Positions 10,203 through 62,594 of a stretch of 64,000 bases of DNA are shown here, piece by piece. The notes below the pieces were generated by a model. It ran no database searches. It saw only the letters and a program-made list of their open reading frames with translations, and was not told where the DNA came from. Every line of letters starts with the position of its first letter. Within the stretch, counting starts at the first letter, position 1. The position numbers were made by a program, and so were the translations under genes. The stretch comes from Candidatus Omnitrophota bacterium (GTDB taxonomy: Bacteria; Hinthialibacterota; Hinthialibacteria; Hinthialibacterales; Hinthialibacteraceae): NCBI GenBank assembly GCA_003598175.1, contig QZKN01000016.1, positions 91,523 to 155,522 of the forward strand, written 5' to 3'.

Positions 10203-10319
10203 GCCGAAAACGGTTAGATTCATCGGACAAGTGAAGGGGCGTATCGGCTGTTGTGGGAATGAAGGGTGATAGGGCTGTCGATTATGAATTAGAATCGGCG
10301 CGGTTCTCCAGCGCCGTCT

Positions 10320-10560
10320 TCAAATCCAGCCAATGCGGCTCGACGAAGCGGAGGGAGGCCGGTTGGTCGAGCTGTATGGCAATTTCGGGCGTTTCGGAAT
10401 CGAGAAGCGATTTTTGCAGATGGTCTCGCGCTTGGTGGGGATTGTGGATGATGAATTCGGAATACTTGGCGGCGCAGACGGGGCAGAGAGCAGGGGTGGC
10501 AAGGGTGGCGTTGTTTCCACCCTTGTGAGAAATCGCGATGGTTTCAGGTAATGGTACACA
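10320..10560. repeat. approx. 240-bp imperfect direct repeat, copy 2
   Basis: See copy 1. A minus-strand frame ends in ...ALCPVCAAKYSEFIIHNPHQARD...LRFVEPHWLDLKTALENRADSNS. Confidence 0.85.
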
Positions 10561-10714
10561 CAATTATTTATTTGGAGCCCACGCATCGAAACCAAAGTCT
10601 GACGTGACCTTGTCATGATTTTTATATTGCGATATGATTTGAAAAATTTTTGAATTTCGAATTTTTTTTATATCCCTTTGATTTACGTCCATTTGGCGGT
10701 GGTGTATCATCATA

Positions 10715-11803: not shown

Positions 11804-11849
11804 TAAATATATTATAATAAGTAATAGCAGGAGTTGTATTGTGGCATCC

Positions 11850-12914: not shown

Positions 12915-14691
12915 CATATCTGTATCAGAGCCAACCAATCCGTTTACCGTCATTAGTCCTGAGAATTTGGACGCTCATACTGCCGTACAACTATTTGTCG
13001 ATTTATTCTCTGATTTTCCACAAGTTCGAAATCCAGGGCATTCTCTGATTTTTGGTGCCCGTGGTTCTGGCAAGAGCATGATGTTTCGCTGTCTCCTACC
13101 TGATGTACTCATGCTTCACAAGAATTGTACGTTCACTGACTTGGATTTCCTTGCTTTTCATGTCCCCATAAAGAACACACAACTCCGAATTACCGACCTC
13201 CAGAGGCTGGATCAACACCACGCAACATTTCTTATAAACGAACATTTTCTCACTCTTTCTTTAATAATTGAGGTGCTTCACTCTTTAAAGTATTTAGAAT
13301 TTTTGCCTTTCCAGGAGTCAGACTATCGAGATTTCTTTGAAAAGATGTATACCTATCGTCTTCGACTATGCGGCTGTACAACAAAATGTGTATTTCGCAA
13401 TAGTTCAACCAATGATTTTTTTGAAACTCTTTACGATCACATGCTCGAAATGCATGCTGAATTCATTCAATACATACTGCAAATCAGTCCGGACAGGGGA
13501 GTTCCTGTTCCACCTTATAATCTCCAGCTTCTTACTTTCCAGGGCTTTTTAGTCCCCTTTTTTCAAGGTTTAAAACGTCTACCCGGCTTTCCGCTAAAGA
13601 ATATTTACTTATTTATTGATGATGCTGATAACTTAAGCAAAACGCAAACCCAGATTTTGAATGCTTGGCTAGCAACCAGAACTCAACCGGAGATCAGTCT
13701 TAAAGTTTCTGCACAGATTGGCAAGTATAGGTCCTTTGTATCTCCAAATGGCACATCGGTTGAGTCTCCACATGATTATCAGGAAGTGAACATTTCCGAC
13801 AAATACACTACAAGCAGAACAGTATATTTTAAGCGGGTACAAGCGATTATAGAAAAACGACTCGATCTTGCAGGAATTAGGGGAATCACTCCAGAAGATT
13901 ACTTTCCTCCATATAAAAAACAGGAAGATGCGGTAAAAAAAGAAGAAGAACGGCTGCGTGCTGTCTGGGAAAAAGAAGGACGCGGCCATCGACCCGGCGA
14001 CGATGCTTTGCGTTACGCAAGACCTAATTACATTCGAGACTTAGGAGGATCTAGAAAGTCTCGTTCGAAATATATGTATGCAAGTTTTGGGCAACTTGTC
14101 CATTTATCATCCGGTGTCATAAGGTATTTTCTGGATTGTGCAGCGTTGATGTTTGATGAGACAATAAAAGTGAAAGGACCGCAACAATCGTTAAAATATA
14201 TTCCACATGAGATTCAAAATAAGATTGCCCGAGAAAAAGCAGATAAAATGATGTTCTCTCAGTTTAGAAAACTAGAGAAAGATGAATCTGTAATAAAAGG
14301 AGAACTCGGTGTTGTACAGAAACTTCAAAATCTCATCTTCTCCATGGGCTATACATTCCACGACATTCTAACCTCTGATAGATCGGAACGTCGAGTTTTT
14401 TCGATCGCTTTATCTAACACCCCTACTGAGGAAATAAAAGAGGTTCTTACATTCGGTGTTCAAATCGGCTACCTCCATGAAGCCACAATTGGAAACAAAG
14501 ATGGTACGGGACGAACGTGGCTATATATAATGAATCGTTGTTTATCTCCCCTTTTTGTTTTAGATCCAACTGGATTCGCAGGTTACTTATTTGTAACTAA
14601 TGAAGCGTTGATTAGGGCGATGTATAATGGAAAACCATTAAGAGAAGTATATGCCAGCGATGAACCCGAGCAATTAACCTTGTTTGATTAG
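12904..14691 (+). CDS. P-loop NTPase, 595 aa (Walker A GARGSGKS, Walker B LFIDDAD)
   Basis: Walker A/B motifs seen in translation. Start overlaps the upstream stop by 11 nt. No recognisable nuclease or helicase motifs by eye. Confidence 0.55.
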   Translation: MPNNISVSEPTNPFTVISPENLDAHTAVQLFVDLFSDFPQVRNPGHSLIFGARGSGKSMMFRCLLPDVLMLHKNCTFTDLDFLAFHVPIKNTQLRITDLQRLDQHHATFLINEHFLTLSLIIEVLHSLKYLEFLPFQESDYRDFFEKMYTYRLRLCGCTTKCVFRNSSTNDFFETLYDHMLEMHAEFIQYILQISPDRGVPVPPYNLQLLTFQGFLVPFFQGLKRLPGFPLKNIYLFIDDADNLSKTQTQILNAWLATRTQPEISLKVSAQIGKYRSFVSPNGTSVESPHDYQEVNISDKYTTSRTVYFKRVQAIIEKRLDLAGIRGITPEDYFPPYKKQEDAVKKEEERLRAVWEKEGRGHRPGDDALRYARPNYIRDLGGSRKSRSKYMYASFGQLVHLSSGVIRYFLDCAALMFDETIKVKGPQQSLKYIPHEIQNKIAREKADKMMFSQFRKLEKDESVIKGELGVVQKLQNLIFSMGYTFHDILTSDRSERRVFSIALSNTPTEEIKEVLTFGVQIGYLHEATIGNKDGTGRTWLYIMNRCLSPLFVLDPTGFAGYLFVTNEALIRAMYNGKPLREVYASDEPEQLTLFD

Positions 14692-14699
14692 GATATACT

Positions 14700-15695
14700 A
14701 TGAAAACAGATACACGACCGATACTTTCTGCTTTGCCAGAAATTCTAAAAGATAGATGTGGTGCATTTATTTGCTGCGCAAGCTATGAAGAAAGATCTCG
14801 CTGTATTTCTGGCGCTGTTAAAGACCTCCCCTTTGAAAGAGTTGTAATTTTTGCGATAGCGGATATTTTCTCTGGTATCGAGGATAGGGCTTTAGAAATA
14901 AAAAGTAATTTTAGCAACAAAACAAACTCAGAAATTGTTTTGACAAAAACTCATGAGCCACTTTTTACTGCTAATGTGGTTGCGAAATCGTTAAGGCGAA
15001 TTATGGATGACGGTATAAATGACATTTTTATTGATATTACAACGTTTACACATGAATTGCTTCTGATATTACTAAGACAGATCAATAGATTTAAAGATAG
15101 ATTAGCGAAAGTAACATGCCTATACACAAGTGCACGAAGTTATTCTATCGGTGATCCAGATGACAGAAAATGGCTTAGCAAAGGTTGCAAAGAAATTAGA
15201 AGCGTAGTGGGATTTCCTGGTTTACTAGTACCTGGTCGTCCCACATGCCTGATTGTGCTTGTGGGATTTGAGCATGAAAGGGCCACTAGGACGATCGTTG
15301 AGATGGATCCTGAACTTCTACTTATAGGAAAGGGAATTCCGAGTGTGGAACATCTAACGGATGAATCTCATAAAGCACCAATGGAATTTTTCCACAATCT
15401 TGTGCAAACTATGGTATCAAGTCGAGGTTCAGTTGAGCCTTTTGAGTTCTCATGCAGAGAGCCTTATCAGACTGCGAGGACTATACTTGAATTGGTTACA
15501 AAAAAACCTGACTTTAACCATATCATAGCTCCATTGAACACAAAAATATCTACAGTTGCTGTTGCTTTAGCCGCCATGGCGAATCAAAAAATCCAGGTGT
15601 GTTATGCAGAACCTGAAACATATAACTTCAATGGATATTCAGAACCAGGTGATAAAGTTTCCATTTTTGATCTGGATTGGGATCGTGAGTTATGA
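14700..15695 (+). CDS. hypothetical protein, 331 aa
   Basis: Long ORF translationally coupled on both sides (8-nt gap upstream, ATGA overlap downstream). No motif recognised. Confidence 0.4.
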   Translation: MKTDTRPILSALPEILKDRCGAFICCASYEERSRCISGAVKDLPFERVVIFAIADIFSGIEDRALEIKSNFSNKTNSEIVLTKTHEPLFTANVVAKSLRRIMDDGINDIFIDITTFTHELLLILLRQINRFKDRLAKVTCLYTSARSYSIGDPDDRKWLSKGCKEIRSVVGFPGLLVPGRPTCLIVLVGFEHERATRTIVEMDPELLLIGKGIPSVEHLTDESHKAPMEFFHNLVQTMVSSRGSVEPFEFSCREPYQTARTILELVTKKPDFNHIIAPLNTKISTVAVALAAMANQKIQVCYAEPETYNFNGYSEPGDKVSIFDLDWDREL

Positions 15696-16603
15696 AGATG
15701 ACTGACAAAAAACTGAATAATTTGGAAGATGTCTTAACTCATTCGCTTACCGTCTTGGATGATGGCTTTGTACGGCTTGTTGATTTCATGGGAGACGATT
15801 CCTCCATTGTACAAGCCGCTCGTGTATCATATGGAGAAGGTACGAAGAAGGTCAGCGAAGATCGTGACCTTATTCGCTACCTTATGCGCCACCGCCACAC
15901 CACTCCATTCGAAATGTGTGAAATCAAATTACACGTTCGCGTTCCGATGGATTGTTGGCGTCAGTGGATTCGACATCGAACGGCTAGCGTAAACGAATAC
16001 TCAACAAGATACTCCATCGCTATAGACGCTGCTCAAAAAACCGATCCCCAAAAATGGAGGATACAATCTAAAAGTAATAAACAGGGAAGTGATGATTTTT
16101 TAAATAATGAAGATGGTGAATTTCTTTCCAAACGAGAAAAGGAAATTCAGGAAAAATGTCGAGAAATTTATGATGAAAGATTAAATTACAGTGTTGCCCG
16201 AGAACAGGCTAGAAAAGATTTACCTCTTTCAACATATACAGAAGCCTATTGGAAAATTGACCTTCACAATCTTCTTCACTTTCTTGAATTGAGATTGGAT
16301 GAAAAAGCTCAATATGAAATCAGACAATACGCGAATGTAATCGGAAACGAAATCGTAAGTAGATGGGTTCCCATCACTTGGGAGGCGTTCAAAGAATATC
16401 GGCTTAATGCTGTTCATCTTTCAGAAACAGAGATTAAAATTTTATCTATGATGTATACTAACGATATAAATTCTGTAGTTGGTTTCATGAAAGAGTGCGG
16501 CTGGTTAGAAGAAGCTGGTGAAATATTGAAACCAAAAGGAGAAACCCGTGAATTTGGAGAAAAGCTTATACGGTTAGGGATACCTATACCCTGGAAAAAA
16601 TAG
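15692..16603 (+). CDS. thyX: flavin-dependent thymidylate synthase family protein
   Basis: Canonical ThyX signature R-H-R-x7-S (WIRHRTASVNEYSTRY). N-terminal ...GFVRLVDFMGDD...AARVS...TPFE... aligns with ThyX. ATGA overlap with the upstream gene; 5-nt gap to Vsr. Confidence 0.8.
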   Translation: MKMTDKKLNNLEDVLTHSLTVLDDGFVRLVDFMGDDSSIVQAARVSYGEGTKKVSEDRDLIRYLMRHRHTTPFEMCEIKLHVRVPMDCWRQWIRHRTASVNEYSTRYSIAIDAAQKTDPQKWRIQSKSNKQGSDDFLNNEDGEFLSKREKEIQEKCREIYDERLNYSVAREQARKDLPLSTYTEAYWKIDLHNLLHFLELRLDEKAQYEIRQYANVIGNEIVSRWVPITWEAFKEYRLNAVHLSETEIKILSMMYTNDINSVVGFMKECGWLEEAGEILKPKGETREFGEKLIRLGIPIPWKK

Positions 16604-16608
16604 TTTCA

Positions 16609-17031
16609 ATGGCAGATAATCTTTCTTTTGAACAACGCAAATACTGCATGTCTCAAATACGTGAAAAAGATACAAAACCAGAGATAATAATCCGCAAAAT
16701 AGTTCATGCACTTGGATACCGTTTCAGACTTCATCGACGTGATCTTCCCGGTTGCCCTGACCTTGTTTTTCCATCTCGAAGAAAGATTATTTTTGTTCAT
16801 GGCTGTTTTTGGCACCGACATTCAGGATGTTCCAAGTCTACAACCCCGACGACCAGAAATGACTACTGGATAAAAAAATTCAAGGGGAACGTCAAACGTG
16901 ACCGCACGAACATTAAGTCGCTTCGTAATCAAGGTTGGGATGTATTGGTAATTTGGGAGTGTGAAACGAAAGAAACTGAAAAACTGTACGAAAATATAAA
17001 ATATTTTTTGGAAAAAAAGGACTGTTCATAA
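16609..17031 (+). CDS. vsr: very-short-patch repair endonuclease
   Basis: ...DLVFPSRRKIIFVHGCFWHRH... and ...RDRTNIKSLRNQGWDVLVIWECE... are diagnostic Vsr motifs. 140 aa. Confidence 0.9.
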   Translation: MADNLSFEQRKYCMSQIREKDTKPEIIIRKIVHALGYRFRLHRRDLPGCPDLVFPSRRKIIFVHGCFWHRHSGCSKSTTPTTRNDYWIKKFKGNVKRDRTNIKSLRNQGWDVLVIWECETKETEKLYENIKYFLEKKDCS

Positions 17032-30899: not shown

Positions 30900-31268
30900 T
30901 CACTTGCTCGACAGCAACGTTTCCACCGCCTGTAGTATTTCTCGGTGCGAATACGGTTTATAAATGATCCGATCGACTCCGATTCGTTGCGCCTCTTCGA
31001 TAATCACTTGCTGCGAGGATGCCGTTACCAGCGCGGCGGGAATATCCGGTTTTTGGGCTTTCAAACGGCGGATGGCCTCCAATCCGTTCAGGGTAGGCAG
31101 CAGATAATCCATCAGCACCAAATCGACGGGAATCGCATCGATTTTATCGAGAAACGTCTCTGCATTGGAAAACACATGCACGATATATTCGTGAAACTCA
31201 AGCAGGTCGCGCAGGTTTTCGCGCAGTTCCTCTTCGTCATCCACAATCACAATCGTTCGATCCGCCAT
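30900..31268 (-). CDS. response regulator receiver protein
   Basis: [14 protein letters not shown]...LVLMDYLLP...ALVTASS...IYKPYS receiver motifs. Confidence 0.85.
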
Positions 31269-32373
31269 GATTTTCTCCCTTTTCTCTTACCGGCAACGTA
31301 ATGGTAAAGGTGCTCCCTTTCCCCTGCTCGCTATCCACGCGAATTCGGCCTCCATGCATCTCAACAAGTTCCTTGGCGATGGACAGACCCAAGCCCGATC
31401 CCTTGGCGAAATGTTGCGAGGCGACGGTGCGATAAAAACGATCCCAAATCCTGCCGCATTCTTCTTTCGTCATGCCGATCCCCGAATCTTTTATGGAAAG
31501 TGTGACCTGATGATCGGTTCCGGAAAGACGAATTTCGACGACGCCGCCGTCCGGCGTGTATTTGATCGCATTGTTCACCAATTCACCGACAATCCGTTCG
31601 ATTTTACTCGGATCCGCAAGTATCATCTTATTTGAATTCGTTTCCTGAAGCAATAACGTAATGTTCTTCTGATCGGCGGCGGGTTTCATTTCTTGCATTA
31701 CGCGCTCGACGATGGTGTGCAATAACACCGGATTCAATTCCAGAACCGTCCGGCCCGACTCGATGCGGTTGATATCCAATAACTCATTCACCAGATTGGT
31801 GAGGCGATCCACGGAACGGGTGGCGCGGTCGAGGATGCGCAATTGTCGATCGGTCAGCGGTCCGGCGACGCCGATGGCGAGATTGTCCAGACTCCCTTTG
31901 ATCGCGGCCAGCGGCGTCCGCAGGTCGTGCGAAGCCTGCGACACGAATGACGTTTTCATTTTGTCGAGTTCCCGCAATTTATCGTTGGCTTTTTTCAATT
32001 GTTCGTTGGTTTCTTTCAATTCCATTGTCCGCGTCTCGACGCGCTGTTCCAAATCGGCCGTCAAGGATTTCAGATCGCGAATGGTGTCCGGATAGCGTAA
32101 AATCGCCATCAGGATCACCCGGGTACATTCTATCAGCGTGAAAACCAGAAAAATCACGACGATAATCGGCGTTGAATAATACCAATTCAACAAAGCGACA
32201 AACAAACCCAACACAAAGAACATCCAAACCTGCTTCGGACATTCGGTATAGAAAATAGTGTAAAAAAAACAAAGAAATAAAAGCGAACCCAGCGAAGCCG
32301 CCGACAAAAAAGCTCCCTGAACCATACTCAACGCCGTCACCACGGCGACAGACAAAATCAGTTTCTTATTCAC
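31237..32373 (-). CDS. sensor histidine kinase
   Basis: H-box [15 protein letters not shown]1 and G2 boxes ([31 protein letters not shown]). N-terminal TM segments. Overlaps the receiver gene. Confidence 0.85.
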
Positions 32374-32451: not shown

Positions 32452-35400
32452 TTAAGAGGATAATGGGGAAAGCGGTAATGTCAGGTTGAACTGCGTTCCC
32501 TTCCCCACCTCACTTTCCACCTGAATGGTTCCTCCATGCATTTCAACAAGTTCCTTCGCAATCGACAATCCCAAACCACTGCCTTTCGCAAACGTTTTTG
32601 ACGCGTTCGTGCGGTAAAACCGCTCCCAAATCCTTTCACATTCCTCTTTCGTCATACCGATGCCGGAATCTTTGACGGATAGGATGATTATGTCATCTGT
32701 CTGACTGAGAGTAACATCGACATCCCCACCTTCTGGCGTGTATTTAATCGCATTGCTGATCAATTCACCCACAACACGCTCCAGTTTCCCCGCGTCGGCG
32801 TGAATAGTTACGTCAGTTATAATATTTGACATAAGTTGGATTCGCTTCTGCTCAGCCGCTGGTTTATTTTCATTGATAATATTCTCCACAAGCGTCTTTG
32901 ATGGTACGTTCGACTTCTCCAACACCATCCGCCCGGATTCGATGCGGGAGAGGTCGAGTACATCGTTCACCAAATCCGTCAGACGGTCCACGGATTTGAC
33001 GGCGCGAGTCATGATTTTTTCCTGTTTTTCGGTCAAGGCTCCGGCGATGCCTAAAATAAGGTTGTCGAGGCTGCCTTTGATCGCGGTGAGGGGAGTGCGG
33101 AGGTCGTGGGAGGCTTGGGAAACGAAAGCGGATTTCATTTGGTCGATTTGGATAAGCTGCGCGTTGGCGTGTTGCAGTTCGGCGTTGGATTGATTGAGTT
33201 GCTCATTGGTGCGGATCACTTGCAGGTGGCGTGTATAGGCAATCAGGGCAAAGGCCAGAATGATGATTAGACCGACAATTCCCAGAATGATCACGATAGG
33301 TTCCTTATACCAGGGATTGACAACCACGAAATCAAAGATTGCCGGTTCTGGAGATACGTTCATATGAACGTCCATTGCGCGAACCTGAAAACGATGCGCT
33401 CCGGCGGGCAGTTTTTTGTAAGAGGCGACTGTATCCTGTGAAAATTTCGTCCATTCTCCCTCATCAATTCGGTGGGAATACAACAACCGGTCGGCGTCCA
33501 CGTATTTCCATTTGTCGATGCCGTCATACACAAAACGCGCTTCGCCGCCGGGGGAGATTTCCGCCACATTCTCTTCCGGATGAAGGATGGCTATCGGCGG
33601 ATCGCGGTCCGCATTGGGATCGTAATAGGTGATTTGCCCCGACATCGTGCCGGCCCAAATCACGCCCTGGCTGTCTTCGAACACTTCCATGACCGCGGAA
33701 GAAGGCAAGCCATCGTCTTCCGTATACTTGATCCAAGCTCCATCGCGATATCGAATCAGGCCGTCCCACGACGCGAGCCAGACGCTGCCGTCTTGTTTGC
33801 TCCGGATCATCGAGGAGATCGATTCTAATCCTTTGCGAATCACTTTGAAATCATTCCCATCGTATTCCACCAGATCTTTGCGGCTCGAAAACCACAGATT
33901 CCCATTTTCCAATTGCAGGATATACATCACAGAATCCGATGGATAGCGATCGCCAAAGGTTTGATACTTTCCATCGCGATAAAGGCCCAGACGCTCTTCG
34001 CTCATGCTGCCAATCCACACATTCTGATCCCGATCCTGGTAAATATGCCTTATATCACCCAGGTTGAGATAACTCACGGACTCCAGGAACGGCTGAAACA
34101 CAATCCCATCCAAACGAAATAAAGAAAAATTATAGAAATAGCCAAATACCGCCAATGCAAATAGATCGCCGTTATCCTGCGCATGGATACTGGTGAATAA
34201 TTTGGTTGATCCATTTTGTTCTGATGATAGTAGTTCGAATTGTTCCAAAATAGGATCGAAGAGCATAAATTCGCCGGGAGTTCCCATGATCAATTTCCCA
34301 TTCGGCAATTCTCCCAGGTTTTGCGTAACATACAGGAATCCCCCTCTATCAATTTTGTTTTTGTAAATCTTCCATGAATGATGATCATTTACTATCAAGT
34401 TCTCAGAATTCTTGTACCAAATCCTGCCATGAGAATCTTCAAAAATACAGGAAAGACCGATTCCATCGATGGCTACGGAACTCGGCACGTTAAAGGCATG
34501 AGGCGAATAGTGGCGGAGACCATAAAGGGATGACGCCCAAAGTCCATCTTTCCCATCGGCCCGAAAACAATTGATCATGCAATCTTGTTCAACAATGGTT
34601 TCCACTCCTTCCCGGCAATGGGTTAATTGCTGGTTGTCAATAAACCAATAGTTGGTTTCATTTACTCCACACCCCCCATCAATATTTTCCCCAATTTGCA
34701 ATATCTTCCATTGGTCTCCGGTGAAATAAACAAGCGCATCCGACACATTCCGGATCGTGGCCACGCCAAAAAGAGTTTCATTGGCTCCTAGACCTGGTTG
34801 CCAAAGAGATTGCAGTCCGTTTTCTTTCGCAAAAGGATATTCCATGATCAGCGGGGGTTGAGTAAAATCATTTTCCGGAAAACGCAATTTCACTACACCA
34901 TGCTCTCCTGTGATCCAATTCGTTCCACTGGGCGACTGATCGATATGATAAAAGGGAGCAATGATGGATTGATCTCCTTGTAGGATGACCGTTGTCTCGT
35001 TTTTTTCGGTATCCAATAGACGCACGGCGTCGGTTGAAACCAAAACGACGCTATTTCCGGAAAGAGGAGCGAAAGTACGTTCTTGCGCAGCTACATTGAA
35101 TCCTTCAATTGCATAAGGCGTCCATTTTTTTGTCTTGAAATCATATTGCTTGATCCCCGCGGCGTAAGGCATATATACTTCATATCCTGGTAACGCAAAA
35201 TAGGACCAGATTTGATTGTCACGCATTACGGTAAATTCAAATCCGTTGTCATTTTCCCGCGGGATCGATTGGACATCGTATCCGGTCACATAACTCAAGG
35301 CGTGAATGGGGCCGTGATTGGTCAACACATGTCCTTCCCGGTTGATCGAAAGGTGTCGGCAATTTGATTCCCCCATCCCATCCGCGGTTTTCCACACGCG

Positions 35401-35487
35401 TACGTTATATGGCGTTCTGGCAAACGCGCTATATCCACATGAAAACAGTAGAACGAATGTTATAAAGTTCAATAGAGTTCGTTGCAT
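32452..35487 (-). CDS. large sensor histidine kinase with periplasmic beta-propeller / Y_Y_Y sensor region
   Basis: 1011 aa. Signal peptide, about 700-aa periplasmic region, TM, then HisKA ([13 protein letters not shown]) and HATPase_c domains closely paralogous to the 31237-32373 kinase. Confidence 0.85.
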   Translation of the reverse strand: MQRTLLNFITFVLLFSCGYSAFARTPYNVRVWKTADGMGESNCRHLSINREGHVLTNHGPIHALSYVTGYDVQSIPRENDNGFEFTVMRDNQIWSYFALPGYEVYMPYAAGIKQYDFKTKKWTPYAIEGFNVAAQERTFAPLSGNSVVLVSTDAVRLLDTEKNETTVILQGDQSIIAPFYHIDQSPSGTNWITGEHGVVKLRFPENDFTQPPLIMEYPFAKENGLQSLWQPGLGANETLFGVATIRNVSDALVYFTGDQWKILQIGENIDGGCGVNETNYWFIDNQQLTHCREGVETIVEQDCMINCFRADGKDGLWASSLYGLRHYSPHAFNVPSSVAIDGIGLSCIFEDSHGRIWYKNSENLIVNDHHSWKIYKNKIDRGGFLYVTQNLGELPNGKLIMGTPGEFMLFDPILEQFELLSSEQNGSTKLFTSIHAQDNGDLFALAVFGYFYNFSLFRLDGIVFQPFLESVSYLNLGDIRHIYQDRDQNVWIGSMSEERLGLYRDGKYQTFGDRYPSDSVMYILQLENGNLWFSSRKDLVEYDGNDFKVIRKGLESISSMIRSKQDGSVWLASWDGLIRYRDGAWIKYTEDDGLPSSAVMEVFEDSQGVIWAGTMSGQITYYDPNADRDPPIAILHPEENVAEISPGGEARFVYDGIDKWKYVDADRLLYSHRIDEGEWTKFSQDTVASYKKLPAGAHRFQVRAMDVHMNVSPEPAIFDFVVVNPWYKEPIVIILGIVGLIIILAFALIAYTRHLQVIRTNEQLNQSNAELQHANAQLIQIDQMKSAFVSQASHDLRTPLTAIKGSLDNLILGIAGALTEKQEKIMTRAVKSVDRLTDLVNDVLDLSRIESGRMVLEKSNVPSKTLVENIINENKPAAEQKRIQLMSNIITDVTIHADAGKLERVVGELISNAIKYTPEGGDVDVTLSQTDDIIILSVKDSGIGMTKEECERIWERFYRTNASKTFAKGSGLGLSIAKELVEMHGGTIQVESEVGKGTQFNLTLPLSPLSS

Positions 35488-35706
35488 GATCCTCTCTCAA
35501 ATCAGCTGGATAGGATGGGGCGCACTTTTTTGATCCATCAAAGATAATTCCAAAGCGCCAGGTCAAACGGTATGATCCATCCTGCAAAACTTCTTTTTGC
35601 ATTTTCGTTCCTTGATAAGATACAGGAAGAATTTTTGCTGTTTAAGGCAGGCAGTGCTGAAAGGATAAGCCTATTTTCAGGATTCTCAAAAAAAAGGAGT
35701 ATAATC

Positions 35707-36033
35707 ATGGATCAAAAGGCATCCAACATGGAAGAAAGCAGTGGTAATGTTTTCGCAGACCTTGGCCTTCCCAACGCGGAACAGGAATTGTTGAAAGCGC
35801 GCCTGATCCTGCAGATTTATGAAATCATCAAACAACGTGGGCTTACGCAGTCGGAAGCCGGCAGAATTCTTGGCATCAAGCAACCTCATGTTTCCGCTCT
35901 GATGCGCAACCGTTCCGGCAATTTCTCTCTGGGCCGGTTGATGACGTTTCTTACGGCTCTCGATCAGGATGTGGAAATCACCGTTCGCCCCAAGCGTAGC
36001 GAACACGCCGAAGTGTCTGTTATAATGCAGTAG
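35707..36033 (+). CDS. XRE-family HTH protein (HigA-like antitoxin, orphan)
   Basis: ...RGLTQSEAGRILGIKQPHVSALMRN... helix-turn-helix. AAGGAG before the ATG at 35707. Confidence 0.6.
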   Translation: MDQKASNMEESSGNVFADLGLPNAEQELLKARLILQIYEIIKQRGLTQSEAGRILGIKQPHVSALMRNRSGNFSLGRLMTFLTALDQDVEITVRPKRSEHAEVSVIMQ

Positions 36034-36153: not shown

Positions 36154-36441
36154 TCATGCAAAATCTATTACAAGACGTTTATGAAGCGCATCAGCGATTT
36201 TTCTCAACATTGCCAAGGAATGCCCTTCATAATCGGCATCTTCGAGACGGGCAATAGCGGATTGACTTGAACCGATTAACTCAGCAAGTTGAGTTTGGGT
36301 AAGACCGGCAGATATCCGAGTATCGTAAATCAATTGAGCAATATGCCTATTGATTGTTTCTTCTTCGATCAGGTCGCGAAGTTCCTGATCATCACCAATC
36401 ATATTCTCGATGATTTTCATGGCGTCAGTACTTTTCCGCAT
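36154..36441 (-). CDS. XRE-family HTH antitoxin (HigA-like)
   Basis: ...ISAGLTQTQLAELIGSSQSAIARLE... HTH. Overlaps the upstream toxin gene. Confidence 0.7.
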   Translation of the reverse strand: MRKSTDAMKIIENMIGDDQELRDLIEEETINRHIAQLIYDTRISAGLTQTQLAELIGSSQSAIARLEDADYEGHSLAMLRKIADALHKRLVIDFA

Positions 36442-36823
36442 TTTTTATCTCCATTTCGGTTTTATATTTATTAGGATTAGCCTCATATTGTTTTTTTCTT
36501 AATAGGGCGCGATCGATTTCCCGATCCGGCACTTTTCCTTCTTTTGCGATTGCATTCGCTAAAACCACTACATCCGTTCCGTGAAAGAAATAGAGAATTC
36601 TGTAATGCACATGTCCTTTTCGTATTCGCAACTCATAGATTCCGTCTCGAAGATAATCGGCCTGAGGTCTCCGGAGTTCAAATCCGAAAGAAGCAAGAAA
36701 ATGGATTGCCGCGATGCATTTTGCATAGGCTTTTTTATCGTGCGTCAATAAATTTCCAAGCCATTCAAAAACCGGTGCGTTCTTATTCTCATCCTGATAA
36801 AAGTAGACAACCATTGTCGGCAT
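36425..36823 (-). CDS. RelE/HigB-like toxin (phage Gp49-like family)
   Basis: ...DGIYELRIRKGHVHYRILYFFHGTDVVVLANAIAKEGK... matches the RelE-fold killer proteins that precede XRE antitoxins. Confidence 0.7.
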   Translation of the reverse strand: MPTMVVYFYQDENKNAPVFEWLGNLLTHDKKAYAKCIAAIHFLASFGFELRRPQADYLRDGIYELRIRKGHVHYRILYFFHGTDVVVLANAIAKEGKVPDREIDRALLRKKQYEANPNKYKTEMEIKNAEKY

Positions 36824-36841
36824 TATTTCTCTCGGATTATA

Positions 36842-37210
36842 TCAATATTGGGATATTCCATCAACCAATTTTCTTTCATGGGGAATCGACAATCGAAAAG
36901 TTGTTCCATTCTCTACTTCACTTTCCACTTCAATTAATACTCCATGCATCTCCACCAGTTCTTTCGCAATCGACAATCCCAATCCGCTCCCTTTTGCAAA
37001 GGTCTTGGAAGCATTTGTCCGATAAAATCGCTCCCAGATTTTCTCGCATTCTTCTTTTGTCATGCCGATGCCGGAATCTTAAACGGAAAGAGCGATTTGA
37101 TCATTGTTTTGAGTGAGAGTGACATTGACAGTTTCATTTTCCGGCATGTATTTAATCGCATTGCTGATCAGTTCACCGACCACACGCTCCAATTTCCTGC
37201 ATCAGCGTTA
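36842..37210 (-). pseudogene. histidine-kinase HATPase_c domain fragment with internal stop
   Basis: Minus-strand translation ...[83 protein letters not shown].... No HisKA or sensor upstream. About 80 % nucleotide identity to 32470-32790. Confidence 0.65.
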
Positions 37211-37392
37211 AGAATTGCGAATCGTAGCCTGCCATTCCATGCGATCCATGCTTCCATCAAAAGCGGACACGACGCGCCCTTGCCGCTTATAAATAGGAGA
37301 TTCCCCTTGATGCGTTTCCGAAACGGCATAACAGTATCACCACAAACGATTCACTCCATTATGCTGAACTACGATGAAAGATCAATTGAAAC

Positions 37393-40300
37393 ATGATATC
37401 CCAAAGGAGATTATTCATGCATCGATTTATCCTCTTGACTTTGCTTTTTGCCCAGCCGGTTGGGGCGGAGTTACAGGAAACCTTTCCCTTGCGGGAAAAC
37501 GGAACGATTCCCGCCTGGCTGATCGCCGGCCCGCTCCCATACCATCCGACCACCATCCCCGATGGAAAACGCGGCGGCATTCAAACGGATTATCTGGAAA
37601 CATACGGCGGCGAAACGCAAACGGTTCCTTGCGAAGGCGACCGGATCGAATTGGAAACCGGTCGCGCAGTCCAATGGCAAACAACCGTCAGCGACACGAA
37701 CGGCGTGATCGATTTTCTGGAAAATTTCAACGCCGACATGACGCGAGAAGGCGTGGCTTACGCGTTTTGTGAACTCGAATCCGAAAAATCCAAAGACGTT
37801 TTGTTGAAGATCCGCAGCAACGACGGCGTCCGTGTGTGGTGCAACGATCGCCTGGTCCACGAAAACCTCGTTTCCCGTACGCTCGAGCAGGGCGAAGATC
37901 ACGTTCGCGTCTCGCTGAAAGCGGGTGCGAACCGCCTGCTCTGCAAAGTGGATCAGGAAGGCGGCGGCTGGGGACTTTGTGTGACTTTGCACGAATCAAA
38001 TGGGGATTTCGCGAAAGAAATAACATCGCGCATCCATCAGATCGAACCATTGAAGGGCAAAATCAAATCGGCGTCATTCCTGACCTCGCCGCTGATCATA
38101 AACACGGAGGCGGGAGAACGTCAAAGTATGATTGCAAATGTGGTTTCCGGCGGTGTTGAGAATGTTATATGCAAAATTACGTGCGAAGCATGGTCTGCCG
38201 CGCAGGAATTTCACCTTGGCGACGCGCCGATGGGCAAACACACTTTTGAATTCGCGGTTCCACCGATCAGCGGTCCGATTCGCGTCGCGCTCGAATCGTC
38301 CTCGGATCAAAAAGAATTCAACCACATTTCAATTCCACCCGCGCGAAAATGGACGGTTTATCTCGTGCAGCACGTCCACACCGACATCGGCTACACGCGA
38401 CCGCAAACCGAAATACTGCCCGAGCACCTGCGCTATATCGACTACGCGCTGGATTTCTGTGATTTGACGGATTCGTATCCTGACGACGCAAAATTTCGCT
38501 GGACATGCGAGGTTTCATGGGCGGTGCGGGAGTATTTGAAACGACGTCCGGCGGATCAGATCGCGCGATTGAAGCGACGGGTGGAAGAAGGGCGCATCGA
38601 ATTGGCGGGAATGTTTTTAAATATGGCAGAAATTGCCACCGAAAGCTCGCTGGCCGCTTCCTTGCAGCCGATTCGCACATTCAAGGAGGAATTTGCTCTT
38701 CCTGTCCGTTCCGCACTGCAGAACGACGTCAACGGCGCGGCGTGGTGCCTGGTCGATTATTTCAGCGATATCGGCGTGAACTATTTGAGCATGGGCATCA
38801 ACAAAACCCGTTCGCTGCTGCCGTTTGATAAGCCCACCGCGTTTTGGTGGGAATCGCCTTCGGGCAAACGCATCATCGCTTTCCGGCCCGACCATTACCA
38901 CACCGGCAATTTCTGGAGAATTCACGAAGGCAAAATCGAACCGTTCAAAACCGGTTTGATGAATTACCTGCGCGGTTTGGAAGAACGGGAATACCCCTTC
39001 GACCGTATTTCCGTCCAGTTTTCCGGCTATCACACCGACAATTCTCCGCCGGCGATGATCGAATGCGATCTGGTCAGAGAATGGAACGAAACCTATGCAT
39101 GGCCGAAGCTGCGTATCGCGACCGCGCGTGAATTTATGGATTACGTCGCCGAGCATCACGCCGATGAGTTGGACGTGCGCCGCGAGGCGTGGCCGGATTG
39201 GTGGACGGACGGCTTTGGTTCGGCCGCGCGGGAAACCGCCGCTTCGCGCGATATGCACGTCGCCATGCAAATCAATCAAACCTTACTGGCCATGGCGGCG
39301 GCATTGGGCGCACAGCTGCCGTCCGACGTGATGCAGCGGGTGGACGAGGCGCAAGAATTACTACTTTTCTACGATGAGCACACCTACGGCGCGGCGGAAA
39401 GCATCAGCGATCCCATGGCCGAAAACAGCATGGTGCAGTGGGGAGAAAAATCCTCGTACGTGTGGGAAGCGGTGAAAAAAGCGGGCATGCTGCGGGAGGA
39501 AGCGTTCGGCATGATACAGGGATTTCTGCCCAAAGCCGATACGCCCACGATCACGACGCTGAATACGTTGAATTGGGAGCGTTCCGGCCTGATCGAACTG
39601 TTTATCGATGACGAAATCCTGCCGCGTGATCGTGATTTCCGCATTGTTGACGCCAAGTCGGGCGAATCGATTCCGGCGCAATACCTACGCGGCCGTTCGG
39701 AAGGAAGCTATTGGGCAATCTGGGCAAAGAACGTGCCGCCGATCGGTTACAAAACGTATCGGATCGAAGTGCAGGATGGTCAACGAGAATCGTCAAACCA
39801 AAGCAATGCGGCGAACGGGATGGAAAATGACTTTTATTCCCTGACATTCCAACCGGAAACCGGCGCGGTGATCAGTCTGTTCGATAAAACAGACAACCGA
39901 CAACTCGTCGAATCGCAAAGCGAATGGGGTTTGGGACAGTTCCTGTATGAAACCTTATCCGACGGACGGGAATTTCAACGTCACAAGTTCAAACGCACAA
40001 CTTTGCGAAATGTAAAAATCAAAGACGGCCCCGGCGGCCCCATCTGGAAAAGCAAAATCATTACCGGCGACGCGGACGGATGCTTCAATCCCGGCGGCCT
40101 GCATTGCGAGATTCGCCTGTTCGAAACGGAAAAGCGGATCGATTTTCTCTACGGCATCCGCAAACAACCGGTCACGGATGCGGAAGCGGTGTACATTGCG
40201 TTTCCATTCCATCAGCCGGGCGCCAAACTGGTTTACGAAGCGCAGGGCGGAATGGTAACGCCCGGTGAAAATCAGATACCACGTTCGTCATCCGACTGGC

Positions 40301-40905
40301 AAACCATTCAAAATTTCGCGGCGGTGCGCAGTCCGGACGGGCAAACGATTTTTGTCAGCGACCAAACGCCGCTGGCGCAATTCGGCGATATCAATCTCGG
40401 CAAATGGCAGGAATCCGCGCAAATCGAACACCCCTTCATCTTTTCCTGGGTGATGAACAATTATTGGTTCACCAATTTCCGCGCCAGCCAGGAAGGGGAA
40501 TTCAAATGGCGCTACTCCATCACCTCGACACAAGACACGAGCAATGGAGCAGCGACCCAATTCGGCTGGGGAACGCGCATCCCTCTGGTCTCCCGTGTAT
40601 TTCCACCGGCGGTTGCGCAAAAAGAACAACACCCCTTATCCTTGTCGATTTTGAATCCGGACGCGCCGAATTTGTTGTTGATCGAAGCGAGACCGGCGCG
40701 TTACGGCGAAGGAATTATCTTACAGTTGCGGGAAGTGGAAGGAAAACAAGCAACGTTGAATGTCCGCGAACTTTCCCGAAACGACAAAACGCAACCGGTG
40801 GATGAAGTGAATGTGTTGGAGGAGCCATTGAAAGAAAACCTGGCAAGTATGGTTTTTTCTCCATACGAAGTGAAATTCCTACACGTCGGCATTGATTTGA
40901 ATTAA
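37393..40905 (+). CDS. secreted glycoside hydrolase, family 38-like (alpha-mannosidase-like), 1170 aa
   Basis: Signal peptide. ...VYLVQHVHTDIGYTRPQ... resembles the GH38 N-terminal metal-binding motif. Large multidomain. Confidence 0.5.
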   Translation: MISQRRLFMHRFILLTLLFAQPVGAELQETFPLRENGTIPAWLIAGPLPYHPTTIPDGKRGGIQTDYLETYGGETQTVPCEGDRIELETGRAVQWQTTVSDTNGVIDFLENFNADMTREGVAYAFCELESEKSKDVLLKIRSNDGVRVWCNDRLVHENLVSRTLEQGEDHVRVSLKAGANRLLCKVDQEGGGWGLCVTLHESNGDFAKEITSRIHQIEPLKGKIKSASFLTSPLIINTEAGERQSMIANVVSGGVENVICKITCEAWSAAQEFHLGDAPMGKHTFEFAVPPISGPIRVALESSSDQKEFNHISIPPARKWTVYLVQHVHTDIGYTRPQTEILPEHLRYIDYALDFCDLTDSYPDDAKFRWTCEVSWAVREYLKRRPADQIARLKRRVEEGRIELAGMFLNMAEIATESSLAASLQPIRTFKEEFALPVRSALQNDVNGAAWCLVDYFSDIGVNYLSMGINKTRSLLPFDKPTAFWWESPSGKRIIAFRPDHYHTGNFWRIHEGKIEPFKTGLMNYLRGLEEREYPFDRISVQFSGYHTDNSPPAMIECDLVREWNETYAWPKLRIATAREFMDYVAEHHADELDVRREAWPDWWTDGFGSAARETAASRDMHVAMQINQTLLAMAAALGAQLPSDVMQRVDEAQELLLFYDEHTYGAAESISDPMAENSMVQWGEKSSYVWEAVKKAGMLREEAFGMIQGFLPKADTPTITTLNTLNWERSGLIELFIDDEILPRDRDFRIVDAKSGESIPAQYLRGRSEGSYWAIWAKNVPPIGYKTYRIEVQDGQRESSNQSNAANGMENDFYSLTFQPETGAVISLFDKTDNRQLVESQSEWGLGQFLYETLSDGREFQRHKFKRTTLRNVKIKDGPGGPIWKSKIITGDADGCFNPGGLHCEIRLFETEKRIDFLYGIRKQPVTDAEAVYIAFPFHQPGAKLVYEAQGGMVTPGENQIPRSSSDWQTIQNFAAVRSPDGQTIFVSDQTPLAQFGDINLGKWQESAQIEHPFIFSWVMNNYWFTNFRASQEGEFKWRYSITSTQDTSNGAATQFGWGTRIPLVSRVFPPAVAQKEQHPLSLSILNPDAPNLLLIEARPARYGEGIILQLREVEGKQATLNVRELSRNDKTQPVDEVNVLEEPLKENLASMVFSPYEVKFLHVGIDLN

Positions 40906-41041
40906 GAGGAAAAAACGATCCATGTCCATGCGTACGTAAAGAAAAGCCGTTTTTTTTAATACCATGTAGGATGGTTCTATATTTATTTTCCTTCGTATAT
41001 AATTACAAAGCGATGGATCAAACGACACGACTCATCCAAAA

Positions 41042-41345
41042 CTATAGTAATCTTTTTAGCGGTATTTGCATGGAAAAAGTCGCTCCTTTAACCTTTTCAC
41101 TCTCAACCCGAATCGTCCCCCCATGCATCTCCACCAACTCTTTCTCAATCGACAATCCCAATCCGCTCCCTTTCGCGAATGCTTTCGAAGCTTTCGTACG
41201 GTAAAACCGTTCCCAATTCTTCTGGCATTCTTCCTGCGTCATGCCGATGCCGGAATCTTTGACGGATAGAGTGATATGATCCTCGGTTTGCGAAAGAGTT
41301 AATCGACATTCCCACTTTCCGGCCTATATTTGACTGCATTGCTGA
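41042..41345 (-). pseudogene. histidine-kinase HATPase_c domain fragment with frameshift and stop
   Basis: ...LLERVVGELISNAVKYRPESGNVD* then frame change, then ...[56 protein letters not shown].... Same 5' truncation point as the 36842-37210 copy. Confidence 0.65.
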
Positions 41346-41574
41346 TCAGCTCACCGACAACACGCTCCAGTAGAACGATTCCAAAATAACATATCGATGA
41401 GTATAAATGATAGAAATTGATTCTAATCCATATTTCCATTTGAAAATTACCGGACTATCATTCACTTCATCAAGATATTTCATTATTCGTTGCTTTAATT
41501 CTTCTTTCGAAGATACACGAATCCCTCACACCATCGTTTTGGTCATTTTCATAAAAAACATCTCAATCATATTT

Positions 41575-42098
41575 TCACCATTCTTTTGGCTTGAAATTTT
41601 TCTCATTGAGAATCATCACGGAATCTCCACTTTGGGCAATGACGAACAGACCCTGCTTGTAAGCAAACTGATCCGCATCTTCACTGATCACGATTCCCGC
41701 CACCGCTCCGACCACTTTTCGGTCTTTGTATTCCGGAAAATAGGTTTAAATTTGTCCATTCGTTTCAAATGGTCTTTCACATCCTGAATGCCAAGTGTGC
41801 TTTTCACCTCAATCAAAACCACGTATTCGCTATTGATACCCAGGATATCGATTTCCATGCCTTCTTTACCGTTCTTGGAAACCTTAAAACGCTGAGTGAC
41901 ACGTTCAATCTCGATCCCCCGTTTGGAAAACAGTTTTATGGCGGCCGGGCTGACCAAGCCTTCGACAAATTCTCCCCACTTGTCGGATAACTTTTGAATT
42001 TTTCGATCTGTCGTCTTTATCTGTTCTGCTGTTTCTTTAAACATCTCCTTCGTTTCCGCCCACATTTTTTTGACTTTTTTATCCGTCTCGGCAAACAA
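41575..42098 (-). pseudogene. PD-(D/E)XK-like nuclease-fold protein, frameshifted
   Basis: ...MEIDILGINSEYVVLIEVKSTLGIQDVKDHLKRM... continues in a +1 frame as ...YFPEYKDRKVVGAVAGIVISEDADQFAYKQGLFVIAQSGDSVMILNEKNFKPKEW after about 41735. A single-base frameshift or a sequencing error. Confidence 0.4.
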
Positions 42099-43558: not shown

Positions 43559-43762
43559 CTAATTTCGAATATCACTAAAATCATAGTCTCCAGTAATAAA
43601 ACAAAATTGGTGATCTTGTACGTATTTTGCAATTACGGGATATTTCGCTTCACCAAGGCCAATATCGCGAACATTTGCAGCGTAAAAACCAAAATCGCGA
43701 ACAATTTTGGTTGATGAAGTGGGGAGATCGGCATCCAAAAGGAAACGCATGGATAGAATCAA
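43559..43762 (-). CDS. DUF5615-family PIN-like protein (toxin of DUF433/DUF5615 pair)
   Basis: MRFLLDADLP...VRDIGLGEA...ITGDYDFSD matches the DUF5615 pattern. 4-nt overlap with the upstream DUF433 gene. Confidence 0.55.
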   Translation of the reverse strand: MILSMRFLLDADLPTSSTKIVRDFGFYAANVRDIGLGEAKYPVIAKYVQDHQFCFITGDYDFSDIRN

Positions 43763-43998
43763 TACTTTGGCAATGGATGAAATTGTTCCGTTTCAATCAG
43801 TGCGGAAGCATATTCCAATGCCGCGAAAACATCGGCTTCACCAATATTATATTCACACATAATCTCTTCTTTTGACATTCCTCCTGACATTCCTCCCAAA
43901 ATCCTTATAATAGGAATACGGGTCCCTTTAATAATCGGTTTTCCATGCTGTATTTCCGGATATATAATGACACGATCAATCATGGAAGTCTCCTGCAC
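43759..43998 (-). CDS. DUF433-domain protein (putative antitoxin)
   Basis: ...QHGKPIIKGTRIPIIRILGGMSGGMSKEEIMCEYN...ADVFAALEYA is the DUF433 signature. Confidence 0.6.
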   Translation of the reverse strand: MQETSMIDRVIIYPEIQHGKPIIKGTRIPIIRILGGMSGGMSKEEIMCEYNIGEADVFAALEYASALIETEQFHPLPKY

Positions 43999-61166: not shown

Positions 61167-62594
61167 ATGCCAGATATTCCCGCCGGACCAAGCCATCGAA
61201 TTACCATCCGCTTGGAAATCGATAACAGACCGGGTCAGTTTGCCAAAGTAGCAACCGTCATTGGAGATTTGGGAGGAAATCTCGGCGCCGTCGATATCGT
61301 CAGCGTAGGGAAAGGCTTCCTCATCCGAGATTTGACGATCGATACACGGGGAGAAGATCATGCGGCAAATATTGTCGCCGCCGTCAAGAAAATTCAGGGC
61401 ATCAAAATCCGTAATGTTTCCGATCGAGTTTTTCTCCTTCATCTCGGCGGTAAAATCACTGTACAAAACAAGATTCCGGTCAATACACGCGATGCGCTTT
61501 CCATGGCCTACACGCCCGGCGTTGCGCGCGTGTGCCGCGCCATCGCCGAAGATCGTTCGGCAGTTTATAACTTGACGATTAAGCGAAACACGGTCGGCAT
61601 CGTAACCGATGGCACCGCCGTGCTGGGCCTGGGCGACATCGGGCCGGAAGCGGCGATGCCGGTGATGGAAGGAAAAGCCATGTTGTTTAAGGAATTCGGC
61701 GACGTCGACGCTTTCCCCATCTGCCTCAAAACCAAAGAAACCGAAGAAATCATTCGCATCGTCGAGGCCATCTCGCCAGGCTTCGGTGGGATCAATCTCG
61801 AAGACATCTCTGCCCCGCGTTGCTTCGAAATCGAGGAACGACTGAAAGAACGTCTCGACATCCCTGTTTTTCACGACGATCAACACGGCACCGCGGTCGT
61901 GGTGTCGGCGGCGCTGATCAATGCGATGAAATTGGTGCACAAAACCATGTCCGAGATTAAAGTCGTCATTCTCGGCGTGGGAGCGGCGGGCGTGGCTTGC
62001 ACGAAAATGATGATGAACATGGGAGTGCGTCATATTATCGGCGTGGATCGCGCGGGAATCGTTTACCAAGGCCGCGAAAAAGGAATGAATGTGGCCAAAC
62101 AATGGTTTGCCGAAAACACCAATCACGAGAATCTACAAGGCTCGATCGTCGACGCCGCGAAAGGAGCGGATGTATTTTTAGGATTGTCCGGCCCCAACAC
62201 ATTTCCGCTCGAGGCGCTGAAATTGATGGCGCGGGATCCCGTCGTTTTTGCGCTGGCCAATCCCGATCCGGAAATATCGCCGGAAGAGGCGGCCGGCCAT
62301 TGCCGCATCATGGCGACGGGACGATCGGATTACCCCAATCAAATCAACAACGTGCTTTGCTTTCCGGGCATTTTCCGCGGCGCGCTCAACGTGCAGGCAA
62401 GCGACATCAACGAGGAAATGAAAGTCGCCGCCGCGCGCGCCATTGCGGATACCATCCCGGTCGGCGAACTCACCGAAGAATACATCATTCCCAGCGTTTT
62501 TGACCGGCGGGTATTCAAATCCGTCGCAAATGCGGTTGCCAAAGCCGCCATCGAAACCGGCGTGGCGAAAAGAAAAAGAAAGCAGAAAGAATAG
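61167..62594 (+). CDS. NAD(P)-dependent malic enzyme with N-terminal ACT domain
   Basis: ...YTPGVARVC..., ...GLGDIGPEAAMPVMEGKAMLFKEFGDVDAFPI... and GVGAAGVA Rossmann motif are hallmarks of malic enzyme. AAGGAG upstream of the ATG. Confidence 0.85.
   Translation: MPDIPAGPSHRITIRLEIDNRPGQFAKVATVIGDLGGNLGAVDIVSVGKGFLIRDLTIDTRGEDHAANIVAAVKKIQGIKIRNVSDRVFLLHLGGKITVQNKIPVNTRDALSMAYTPGVARVCRAIAEDRSAVYNLTIKRNTVGIVTDGTAVLGLGDIGPEAAMPVMEGKAMLFKEFGDVDAFPICLKTKETEEIIRIVEAISPGFGGINLEDISAPRCFEIEERLKERLDIPVFHDDQHGTAVVVSAALINAMKLVHKTMSEIKVVILGVGAAGVACTKMMMNMGVRHIIGVDRAGIVYQGREKGMNVAKQWFAENTNHENLQGSIVDAAKGADVFLGLSGPNTFPLEALKLMARDPVVFALANPDPEISPEEAAGHCRIMATGRSDYPNQINNVLCFPGIFRGALNVQASDINEEMKVAAARAIADTIPVGELTEEYIIPSVFDRRVFKSVANAVAKAAIETGVAKRKRKQKE

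Follow-up and report, generated by a model that had tools for sequence, protein, structure and literature searches.

Two truncated histidine-kinase genes on either side of a GH38-family gene in a Candidatus Omnitrophota genome

Bacterial genes that have been disrupted by an insertion sequence (IS) or reduced by a deletion are left as truncated coding regions with few point lesions, a transposase remnant beside them and substitutions resembling those of genes under purifying selection. Here we analyzed two stubs of this kind, fragA and fragB, which are the 3' ends of histidine-kinase genes and lie on either side of a GH38-family gene in a Candidatus Omnitrophota metagenome-assembled genome (MAG). 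The stretch of DNA that was studied, 64,000 nt in all, is called the window, and positions are window coordinates unless a locus of another genome is named. fragA and fragB are a feature of an already known kind, and their substitutions resemble purifying selection because the decay is recent. Compared with ordinary pseudogene stubs, the sole oddity is that two paralogous stubs lie 4 kb apart with breakpoints only 15-40 nt apart. We conclude that they are independent, recently inactivated stubs of two long-diverged kinases, ordinary debris in an accessory patch. The similar 5' edges, at the start of the ATP-binding domain, would then be a near-coincidence, and the GH38 gene would be a resident gene merely lying between the stubs, not a cassette. 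We give this explanation, taken as a whole, a probability of about 0.7.

The parent family of both stubs is that of the Reg_prop/Y_Y_Y sensor kinases, which have periplasmic beta-propeller sensors and include the hybrid two-component systems of Bacteroides. An intact kinase of the window (K1011) and the intact kinase of a related uncultured MAG (locus L002) carry the Reg_prop, Y_Y_Y, HisKA and HATPase_c domains, and of these the stubs keep HATPase_c only. Unlike the Bacteroides hybrids, the Omnitrophota family seen here lacks a fused receiver and an AraC output. At the nucleotide level its transmitter modules share 75-85 % identity, and at the protein level its sensors share 23-43 %.

Identity, lesions and divergence of the stubs

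A first-pass annotation had placed two decayed histidine-kinase 3' ends, about 80 % identical to the 3' end of K1011, on the minus strand around the GH38 gene. We recovered both: blastn against the K1011 3' end gave 77.7 % identity for fragA (318 nt) and 79.4 % for fragB (277 nt). In a tblastn search, fragA (37195-36881) and K1011 residues 901-1005 shared 80 % identity (105 aa; E=9e-45), whereas fragB (41311-41048) and residues 922-1009 shared 72 % (88 aa; E=2e-33). The extents given at first were right for the start of fragA at 36842 and too short for fragB, which runs on from 41345 to 41371. The neighbors were also as described, since the HigB toxin gene of a HigBA pair starts 19 nt past the end of the fragA frame and 137 nt separate the stop codons of GH38 and fragB.

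Both stubs hold a complete HATPase_c domain, from the N-box (LERVVGELISNA) through DSGIGM and FYR on to the C-terminus, with the N, G1, F and G2 boxes all present. The inactivating stops and frameshifts reported earlier are there as well. fragA has an in-frame TAA at 37081-37079, which replaces the Lys codon of SVKDSG, and a 1-nt deletion at about 37196; its ancestral stop has been lost, so that the frame continues to 36842. fragB has a 1-nt deletion at about 41300. As had been claimed, no HisKA or sensor part accompanies the stubs, and homology and profile searches found no such remnant elsewhere in the window. Compared with a functional histidine kinase, both stubs have interrupted frames and lack the HisKA/DHp domain with its phospho-acceptor His. 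JGI gene calls place two open reading frames (ORFs) in fragA, of 73 and 37 aa, both with HATPase_c hits. A candidate N-terminal kinase remnant upstream of fragA (a pairwise GVNRLW../GVWRFW.. match) was rejected, as a profile built from six kinase N-termini missed it.

We next consider how the copies are related. Over a 316-column core, identity is 75.3 % for K1011/fragA, 75.9 % for K1011/fragB and 75.6 % for fragA/fragB, and the longest run identical between the two stubs is 28 nt. Each fragment is matched best by kinases of other genomes, with 79-81 % identity. Synonymous sites are saturated: the proportion of synonymous differences (pS) is 0.55-0.69 overall and about 0.55 for the fragA/fragB pair. 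The neighbor-joining tree has a star-like shape, with a weak link between fragA and the L002 kinase; fragA and fragB are not sisters. As judged from these alignments, the two stubs are from different, ancient paralogues and are not duplicates of one event. The alignment and tree of the HATPase-coding segments, with a star-like topology, equidistant copies and unequal breakpoints, thus went against the view of the first-pass annotation. Of the direct repeats of about 310 bp that it had seen around the GH38 gene, the direct orientation stands; repeats of one event they are not, at 75.6 % identity only. Gene conversion or recent duplication of the stubs was likewise considered and is not supported, as no counterpart more than 85 % identical to either stub was found.

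The pattern of substitutions bears on the age of the inactivation. The proportion of nonsynonymous differences (pN) is 0.12-0.13 and pS 0.60-0.67 for the stubs, compared with 0.11 and 0.67 for intact paralogues, and third codon positions hold about 0.6-0.67 of the stub differences, as in intact pairs. Both stubs therefore belonged to functional genes until recently, and their excess pN would correspond to only 1-1.5 % of neutral divergence.

One could also suppose that the stubs are an assembly or sequencing artefact, the metagenome assembly having produced chimeras where the 3' ends of kinase genes are conserved. The source is indeed a MAG, and kinase 3' ends are multi-copy in it. Against this, the longest exact shared run is 28 nt and the junctions lie outside shared runs; a JGI contig is identical to the window over 23.5 kb, and the 73-aa fragA ORF is recorded in two contigs; and chimerism leaves the IS remnant described below and the point lesions unexplained. 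We consider an artefact extremely improbable.

How the two kinases were truncated

Among intact paralogues (n=8), identity stays at 65-85 % for about 390 nt upstream of the N-box, where the fragments fall to background. Both truncations are thus real and not the edge of a conserved region. The homology of fragB begins exactly at CTGGAGCG, the Leu codon of LERVV (41370/41371). That of fragA extends 15-40 nt further 5' (..NADAG..; ..CGAT..GCAA..AACGCTGATGCAGG-AAA). The claim that both fragments begin at exactly the same position does not survive this alignment, nor does the use of an identical boundary as an argument against random decay, because the edges differ and the flanks are unlike: the tail of an IS630-family element stands at fragB and nothing recognizable at fragA.

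Members of the IS630/Tc1/mariner group insert at a TA dinucleotide and duplicate it (PMC8533490). At fragB, a tblastn search with the Mesorhizobium loti IS630 transposase matched residues 318-376 of 380 at 41597-41424, with 50 % identity (E=1.6e-10). The remnant peptide (..NMIEMF..SSKEELKQRIMKYLDEVNDSPVIFKWKYGL) also hits annotated IS630 transposases of plasmids, at the very end of their C-terminus (E 1e-5 to 3e-6). A tail of about 50 nt follows the last conserved residues and stands directly against fragB, the junction reading ...GGAATCGTTCTA and then CTGGAGCG, with TA at 41371/41372. That fragB was cut by a mobile element, in keeping with the disruption proposed earlier, is well supported by this abutting transposase remnant. 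The homologous transposase C-terminus, the short tail after the ORF and the TA at the target junction are all as in the IS630/Tc1/mariner group. Unlike its described members, this element has only its last ~230 nt left: the left end has been deleted, one side of the presumed target duplication remains and no inverted repeats are seen. Position 41371/41372 would be the true IS terminus; a search of the M. loti element for inverted repeats shed no light on it.

Our model for fragB is that an IS630-family element inserted into the parent gene, kinase B. A later deletion would have taken out the 5' ~2.7 kb of kinase B and about 80 % of the element, and would have joined the remainder to the region downstream of the DUF3782 gene, which would mark the other side of the deletion.

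The history of fragA can be read from its 3' side. The HigB toxin gene is followed by the HTH antitoxin gene HigA, which overlaps it by 17 nt, as in type II HigBA-like pairs. The segment 36154-37208, comprising HigA, HigB and fragA, is collinear with L002 14326-13271 (78.5 % over 1,058 nt). There, an intact kinase gene (10231-13611, 1,126 aa) precedes HigB, which starts 46 nt past the kinase stop. Thus, fragA is what is left of the kinase that preceded HigBA. HigBA pairs are found in many genomes, and HigB homologues in other lineages follow unrelated genes, so that the kinase-HigBA unit is specific to the window genome and L002. The homologue search found no relative of HigB closer than 73 %. 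For the source kinase, no orthologue was found in a one-genome-per-species collection, where the best full-length match is 43 %; a metagenome scan with the HATPase domain gave relatives at 41-61 % identity among the matches listed. We propose that the 5' ~3 kb of kinase A, the parent of fragA, was lost by a deletion reaching to ~180 bp from the GH38 start.

The end of fragA also overlaps predicted control elements of HigBA. A consensus scan places the -35 box of the predicted HigBA promoter inside the end of fragA, and a 26-nt palindrome (GGATTATATCAATATTGGGATATTCC, 36834-36859) overlies the predicted -10 box; this palindrome is likely the antitoxin operator. The promoter-like core TTGATATAAT in the kinase-HigB spacer is conserved in L002.

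The same collinearity admits another reading, in which fragA was never complete here: a block of ~1.06 kb (kinase 3' end, HigB and HigA) would have been imported by horizontal transfer or illegitimate recombination, with the stub as a passenger. The block common with L002 ends exactly at the HigA stop and at the N-box, its GC content is low (0.41), its few lesions are compatible with a recent arrival, and the unrelated contexts of HigBA homologues point to a mobile pair. However, the closest known donor is only 78 % identical, no element ends or repeats were found at the block borders, and L002 also has the neighboring HTH_37 gene at this locus, though in permuted order; this suggests that a larger region is of common descent. 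We regard import as unlikely.

Stubs in related genomes and proposed limits of deletion

Six loci from related MAGs hold six further stubs, which with fragA and fragB makes eight; breakpoints were placed relative to the N-box (Table 1). They spread over ~230 nt and arose by several mechanisms, which is at odds with the single hotspot that had been offered for the two window stubs: the eight break at -42 to about +190 nt through different kinds of event.

A hotspot would mean that the start of HATPase_c, at the N-box, is preferred for IS630-type or other insertion or breakage, and that both window kinases were cut alike. The three breakpoints of fragB, fragA and L006 lie close together there, and the IS630 remnant and TA mark the fragB junction. 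A TA is also present at the possible fragA junction (GGC TA CGAT), and there is a weak F*WKHG / FKWKYG resemblance upstream of fragA. Yet neither the remnant peptide nor the full transposase gave an IS630 signal in the fragA flank, whose nucleotide similarity to the fragB flank (score 18) is within that of shuffles (17 +/- 2). At the site that corresponds to the fragB junction, intact paralogues lack a TA, the L006 event was an internal deletion and not an insertion, and the other stubs break at +99 to +190. Taken together, we find a hotspot, even as a weak preference for the domain edge, quite unlikely. By our own rough estimate, for a pair noticed post hoc, two stubs would fall 15-40 nt apart by chance in ~3 % of cases for a uniform 3-kb gene, and in ~10 % when only the recognizable last 750 nt are counted.

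If fragA and fragB are independent debris, why do their 3' ends persist? We hypothesize that the stubs survive since deletions cannot run into the DNA 3' of them. For fragA the barrier would be the HigBA addiction module, with its predicted -35 box and palindromic operator overlapping the stub end; for fragB it would be the convergent GH38 gene. Stubs in L002, L003 and L005 often lie directly before the start codon of the next kinase, which fits a deletion limit set by the 3' flank. Chromosomal type II toxin-antitoxin modules are reportedly stabilizers of neighboring DNA. By analogy, HigBA, which lies immediately 3' of fragA with a predicted promoter overlapping the stub end, is a plausible deletion barrier, but the promoter would need only about a tenth of the length of fragA.

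Five points weigh against independent decay as we describe it. The kinase-HigBA unit is known from one close MAG, so that the ancestral state rests on one comparison. The upstream flank of fragA (37223-37392, ~180 bp to the GH38 start) is unassignable sequence, with no similarity to any locus fetched. Pattern searches of the window and the loci for an intact or second copy of the IS gave only the remnant itself, and a peptide search for an intact element gave one 50-aa fragment. Two of the eight stubs, or three with L006, break within ~42 nt at the HATPase_c start, which is more clustered than the uniform model would have it. Finally, the action of HigBA and GH38 as barriers is something that we infer.

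Several further observations were made on these loci. At L006 9836-10673 a kinase has an internal deletion of ~2.2 kb, which leaves a 175-aa ORF with the kinase's own signal peptide and first propeller blade and an otherwise lesion-free HATPase ORF of 127 aa; HEPN/MNT and PIN toxin-antitoxin genes flank it. Between the L001 stub (9091-9276) and the equivalent L005 stub (6564-6635), 14 of the 72 shared sites differ, and 12 of these 14 are third codon positions (p=8e-5), a bias unexpected for a shared, neutrally decaying pseudogene. This hints at gene conversion, at independent truncation at the same junction, or at selection. A recurrent order was also seen (L001 6115-9276; L005 2631-6635 and 10976-14278): an intact kinase, a toxin-antitoxin pair on the opposite strand (PIN with a DUF2281-type antitoxin, or other toxin-antitoxin genes), an antitoxin promoter element, a HATPase stub and the next gene. 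Formally, this is the product of a Campbell-type insertion of a circle, made of stub and toxin-antitoxin pair, into the 3' end of a kinase gene; the copies, however, match at only 72-86 %.

Table 1. Features of the window and kinase stubs of related loci
Feature	Location	Strand	Breakpoint relative to N-box	Remarks
Response regulator	30900-31268	-		domain hits; directly downstream of K1011/K378, same two-component cluster
K378	31237-32373	-		HisKA + HATPase_c; directly downstream of K1011
K1011	32452-35487	-		intact sensor kinase with signal peptide, Reg_prop, Y_Y_Y, HisKA, HATPase_c; reference paralogue
HTH_37 gene (Xre-like, antitoxin-type)	35572-36033	+		between K1011 and HigA
HigA-like HTH_3 antitoxin	36154-36441	-		PF01381 1.6e-8; 85 % aa identity to L002 14039-14323
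HigB-like toxin (Gp49/RelE-ParE superfamily)	36425-36823	-		PF05973 7e-17; TIGR02683; 73 % aa identity to L002 13657-14046
Predicted HigBA promoter	36834-36864	-		TTGATG-17-TATAAT + upstream TG; consensus scan only
fragA	36842-37222	-	about -15 to -40 nt	3' stub of Reg_prop/Y_Y_Y-type histidine kinase; pseudogene
GH38-family alpha-mannosidase-like gene	37393-40905	+		intact, between the two stubs; PF01074/PF09261/PF07748; homologues
fragB	41042-41371	-	0	3' stub of a second, different paralogous kinase; pseudogene
IS630-family remnant	41372-41597	-		last ~60 transposase codons + ~50-nt tail
DUF3782 protein gene	41688-42098	-		left neighbor of the IS630 remnant
DUF5615 PIN-like toxin	43559-43762	-		JGI gene call with Pfam hit
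DUF433 antitoxin	43759-43998	-		JGI gene call with Pfam hit
L006 stub	10302-10673		-42 nt	internal deletion; HATPase domain joined out of frame to the first ~150 codons of the same kinase
L002 stub	10001-10210		+99 nt	adjoins truncated HTH_37 gene
L003 stub	684-851		+115 nt	~350 nt downstream of DDE_Tnp_1 transposase C-terminus
L001 stub	9091-9276		+130 nt	adjoins promoter/5' element of PIN-associated antitoxin
L005 stub	6564-6635		+130 nt	same antitoxin element as at the L001 stub, whose position is equivalent
L005 stub	~14177-14266		about +190 nt	same antitoxin element as the L001 stub

The GH38-family gene, the neighborhood and their meaning

The GH38 gene differs from its immediate surroundings in composition: its GC content is 0.536, next to 0.542 for the ACT-malic enzyme gene of the window, 0.41 for HigBA and fragA and 0.43 for the DUF3782 gene. 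In a relative (L113 794-5955), a GH38 homologue (58 % aa identity) is followed after 225 bp by an ACT-malic enzyme gene (78 %). In the window, that gene lies at 61167-62594, 20 kb downstream of GH38, which suggests that the 40.9-61.2 kb interval was inserted or rearranged between the two. No remnant of the gene upstream in L113 was found beside the window GH38. Its homologues elsewhere have no kinase neighbors, and the homologue search gave no relative closer than 63 %.

The closest described architecture in which direct-orientation 3' ends bracket cargo with a sharp 5' boundary is that of integrative islands, whose attachment (att) sites lie in tRNA, tmRNA or protein-gene 3' ends. Unlike these islands, the present locus lacks an integrase and a complete target gene; its copies are 76 % and not near 100 % identical, their boundaries are unequal and the cargo has a native appearance. 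A domain scan of the larger ORFs across the window, with every gene called at 23-51 kb among them, gave no integrase or recombinase, and no repeats other than the kinase stubs were found flanking GH38. The window has no tRNA genes that could serve as candidate att sites, and Rfam gave no match in 35-44.5 kb.

Could the gene have arrived by recombination all the same? A circle carrying GH38 and a kinase 3' fragment could have recombined, Campbell-fashion, into the HATPase region of the kinase upstream of HigBA, giving one complete and one truncated copy, of which the complete one was later destroyed by IS630; excision would still be possible. This would account for the direct orientation with cargo between the copies and for the collinearity of the fragA 3' side with the resident kinase-HigBA unit, and the same formal architecture, with an intact kinase, opposite-strand cargo and a stub, occurs with toxin-antitoxin pairs in L001 and L005. 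But at 75.6 % identity, with a longest exact run of 28 nt, the stubs are poor substrates for homologous recombination, and their synonymous sites are saturated. The scheme further requires that a second truncation, that of fragB, fell by coincidence at the same place. No integrase was found in the larger ORFs scanned, and the gene to be brought in looks native: it has core-like GC and sits beside malic enzyme in a relative. Its homologues elsewhere are not linked to kinases. We consider it very improbable. The repeat-mediated acquisition of GH38 put forward by the first-pass annotation is not supported, on the same grounds: the copies are ancient paralogues (pS 0.55-0.67), no recombinase or other flanking repeat was found, the GC is core-like and malic enzyme is adjacent in L113.

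A broader reading is that the conserved 3' module of the kinase transmitter is a recurrent landing or recombination pad for toxin-antitoxin cassettes, ISs and cargo in this Omnitrophota lineage, with stubs maintained or renewed by a codon-aware process such as gene conversion from intact paralogues, and the GH38 pair as one instance. We hold this to be highly doubtful. Independent decay of two kinases, with GH38 as a resident gene, remains our preferred explanation.

The stubs belong to a stretch at ~35.5-44.2 kb that is low in GC, accessory and rich in toxin-antitoxin genes, with the IS remnant. Beyond fragB the order, in rising coordinates, is DUF3782, an ORF of 321 aa of unknown function, the DUF433/DUF5615 pair, DUF5107-TPR and GntP. 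The DUF433/DUF5615 pair, another type II toxin-antitoxin module less than 8 kb from HigBA, gave no match with NCBIfam.

Side observations concern other genes of the window. The HTH_37 gene has no visible toxin partner. Over its last 171 nt it matches, with 87 % identity, a copy at L002 9746-9916 that is truncated at the 5' end and adjoins another kinase stub; the order there is circularly permuted relative to HigBA. The public gene call for K1011 starts at 35376 (974 aa); the ATG at 35487 gives 1,011 aa and adds a plausible signal peptide (MQRTLLNFITFVLLFSCGYSAFA), so that the longer start looks right. At 10715-17031, on the plus strand, lies a low-GC island (39-41 %) of six genes, coding for a C5 DNA methylase, an HD-CE protein, an ORC-CDC6-like ATPase (PF24389, 4e-93), a ThyX-like Thy1 protein, a Vsr endonuclease and a CARF-like/HFX_2341_N protein (PADLOC CARF6, 2.6e-79). 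The island resembles a defence or conflict system, one whose thymidylate-synthase-like member is unusual.

For annotation, our results mean that the two short HATPase_c ORFs, which public gene calls give as 73 and 66 aa, need to be labelled pseudogene remnants, that the IS630 remnant should be annotated and that GH38 should not be read as a mobile cassette. If breakpoint clustering or codon-aware maintenance of stubs were true across the family, it would bear on the shuffling of conserved signaling modules; under the pad reading, the stubs at GH38 would be one case of lineage-wide module shuffling and not chance debris. As we read it, the locus is a small, clean example of how IS insertion and deletion erode an expanded sensor-kinase repertoire in a reduced-genome phylum, and it also illustrates how toxin-antitoxin pairs accumulate at kinase 3' ends.

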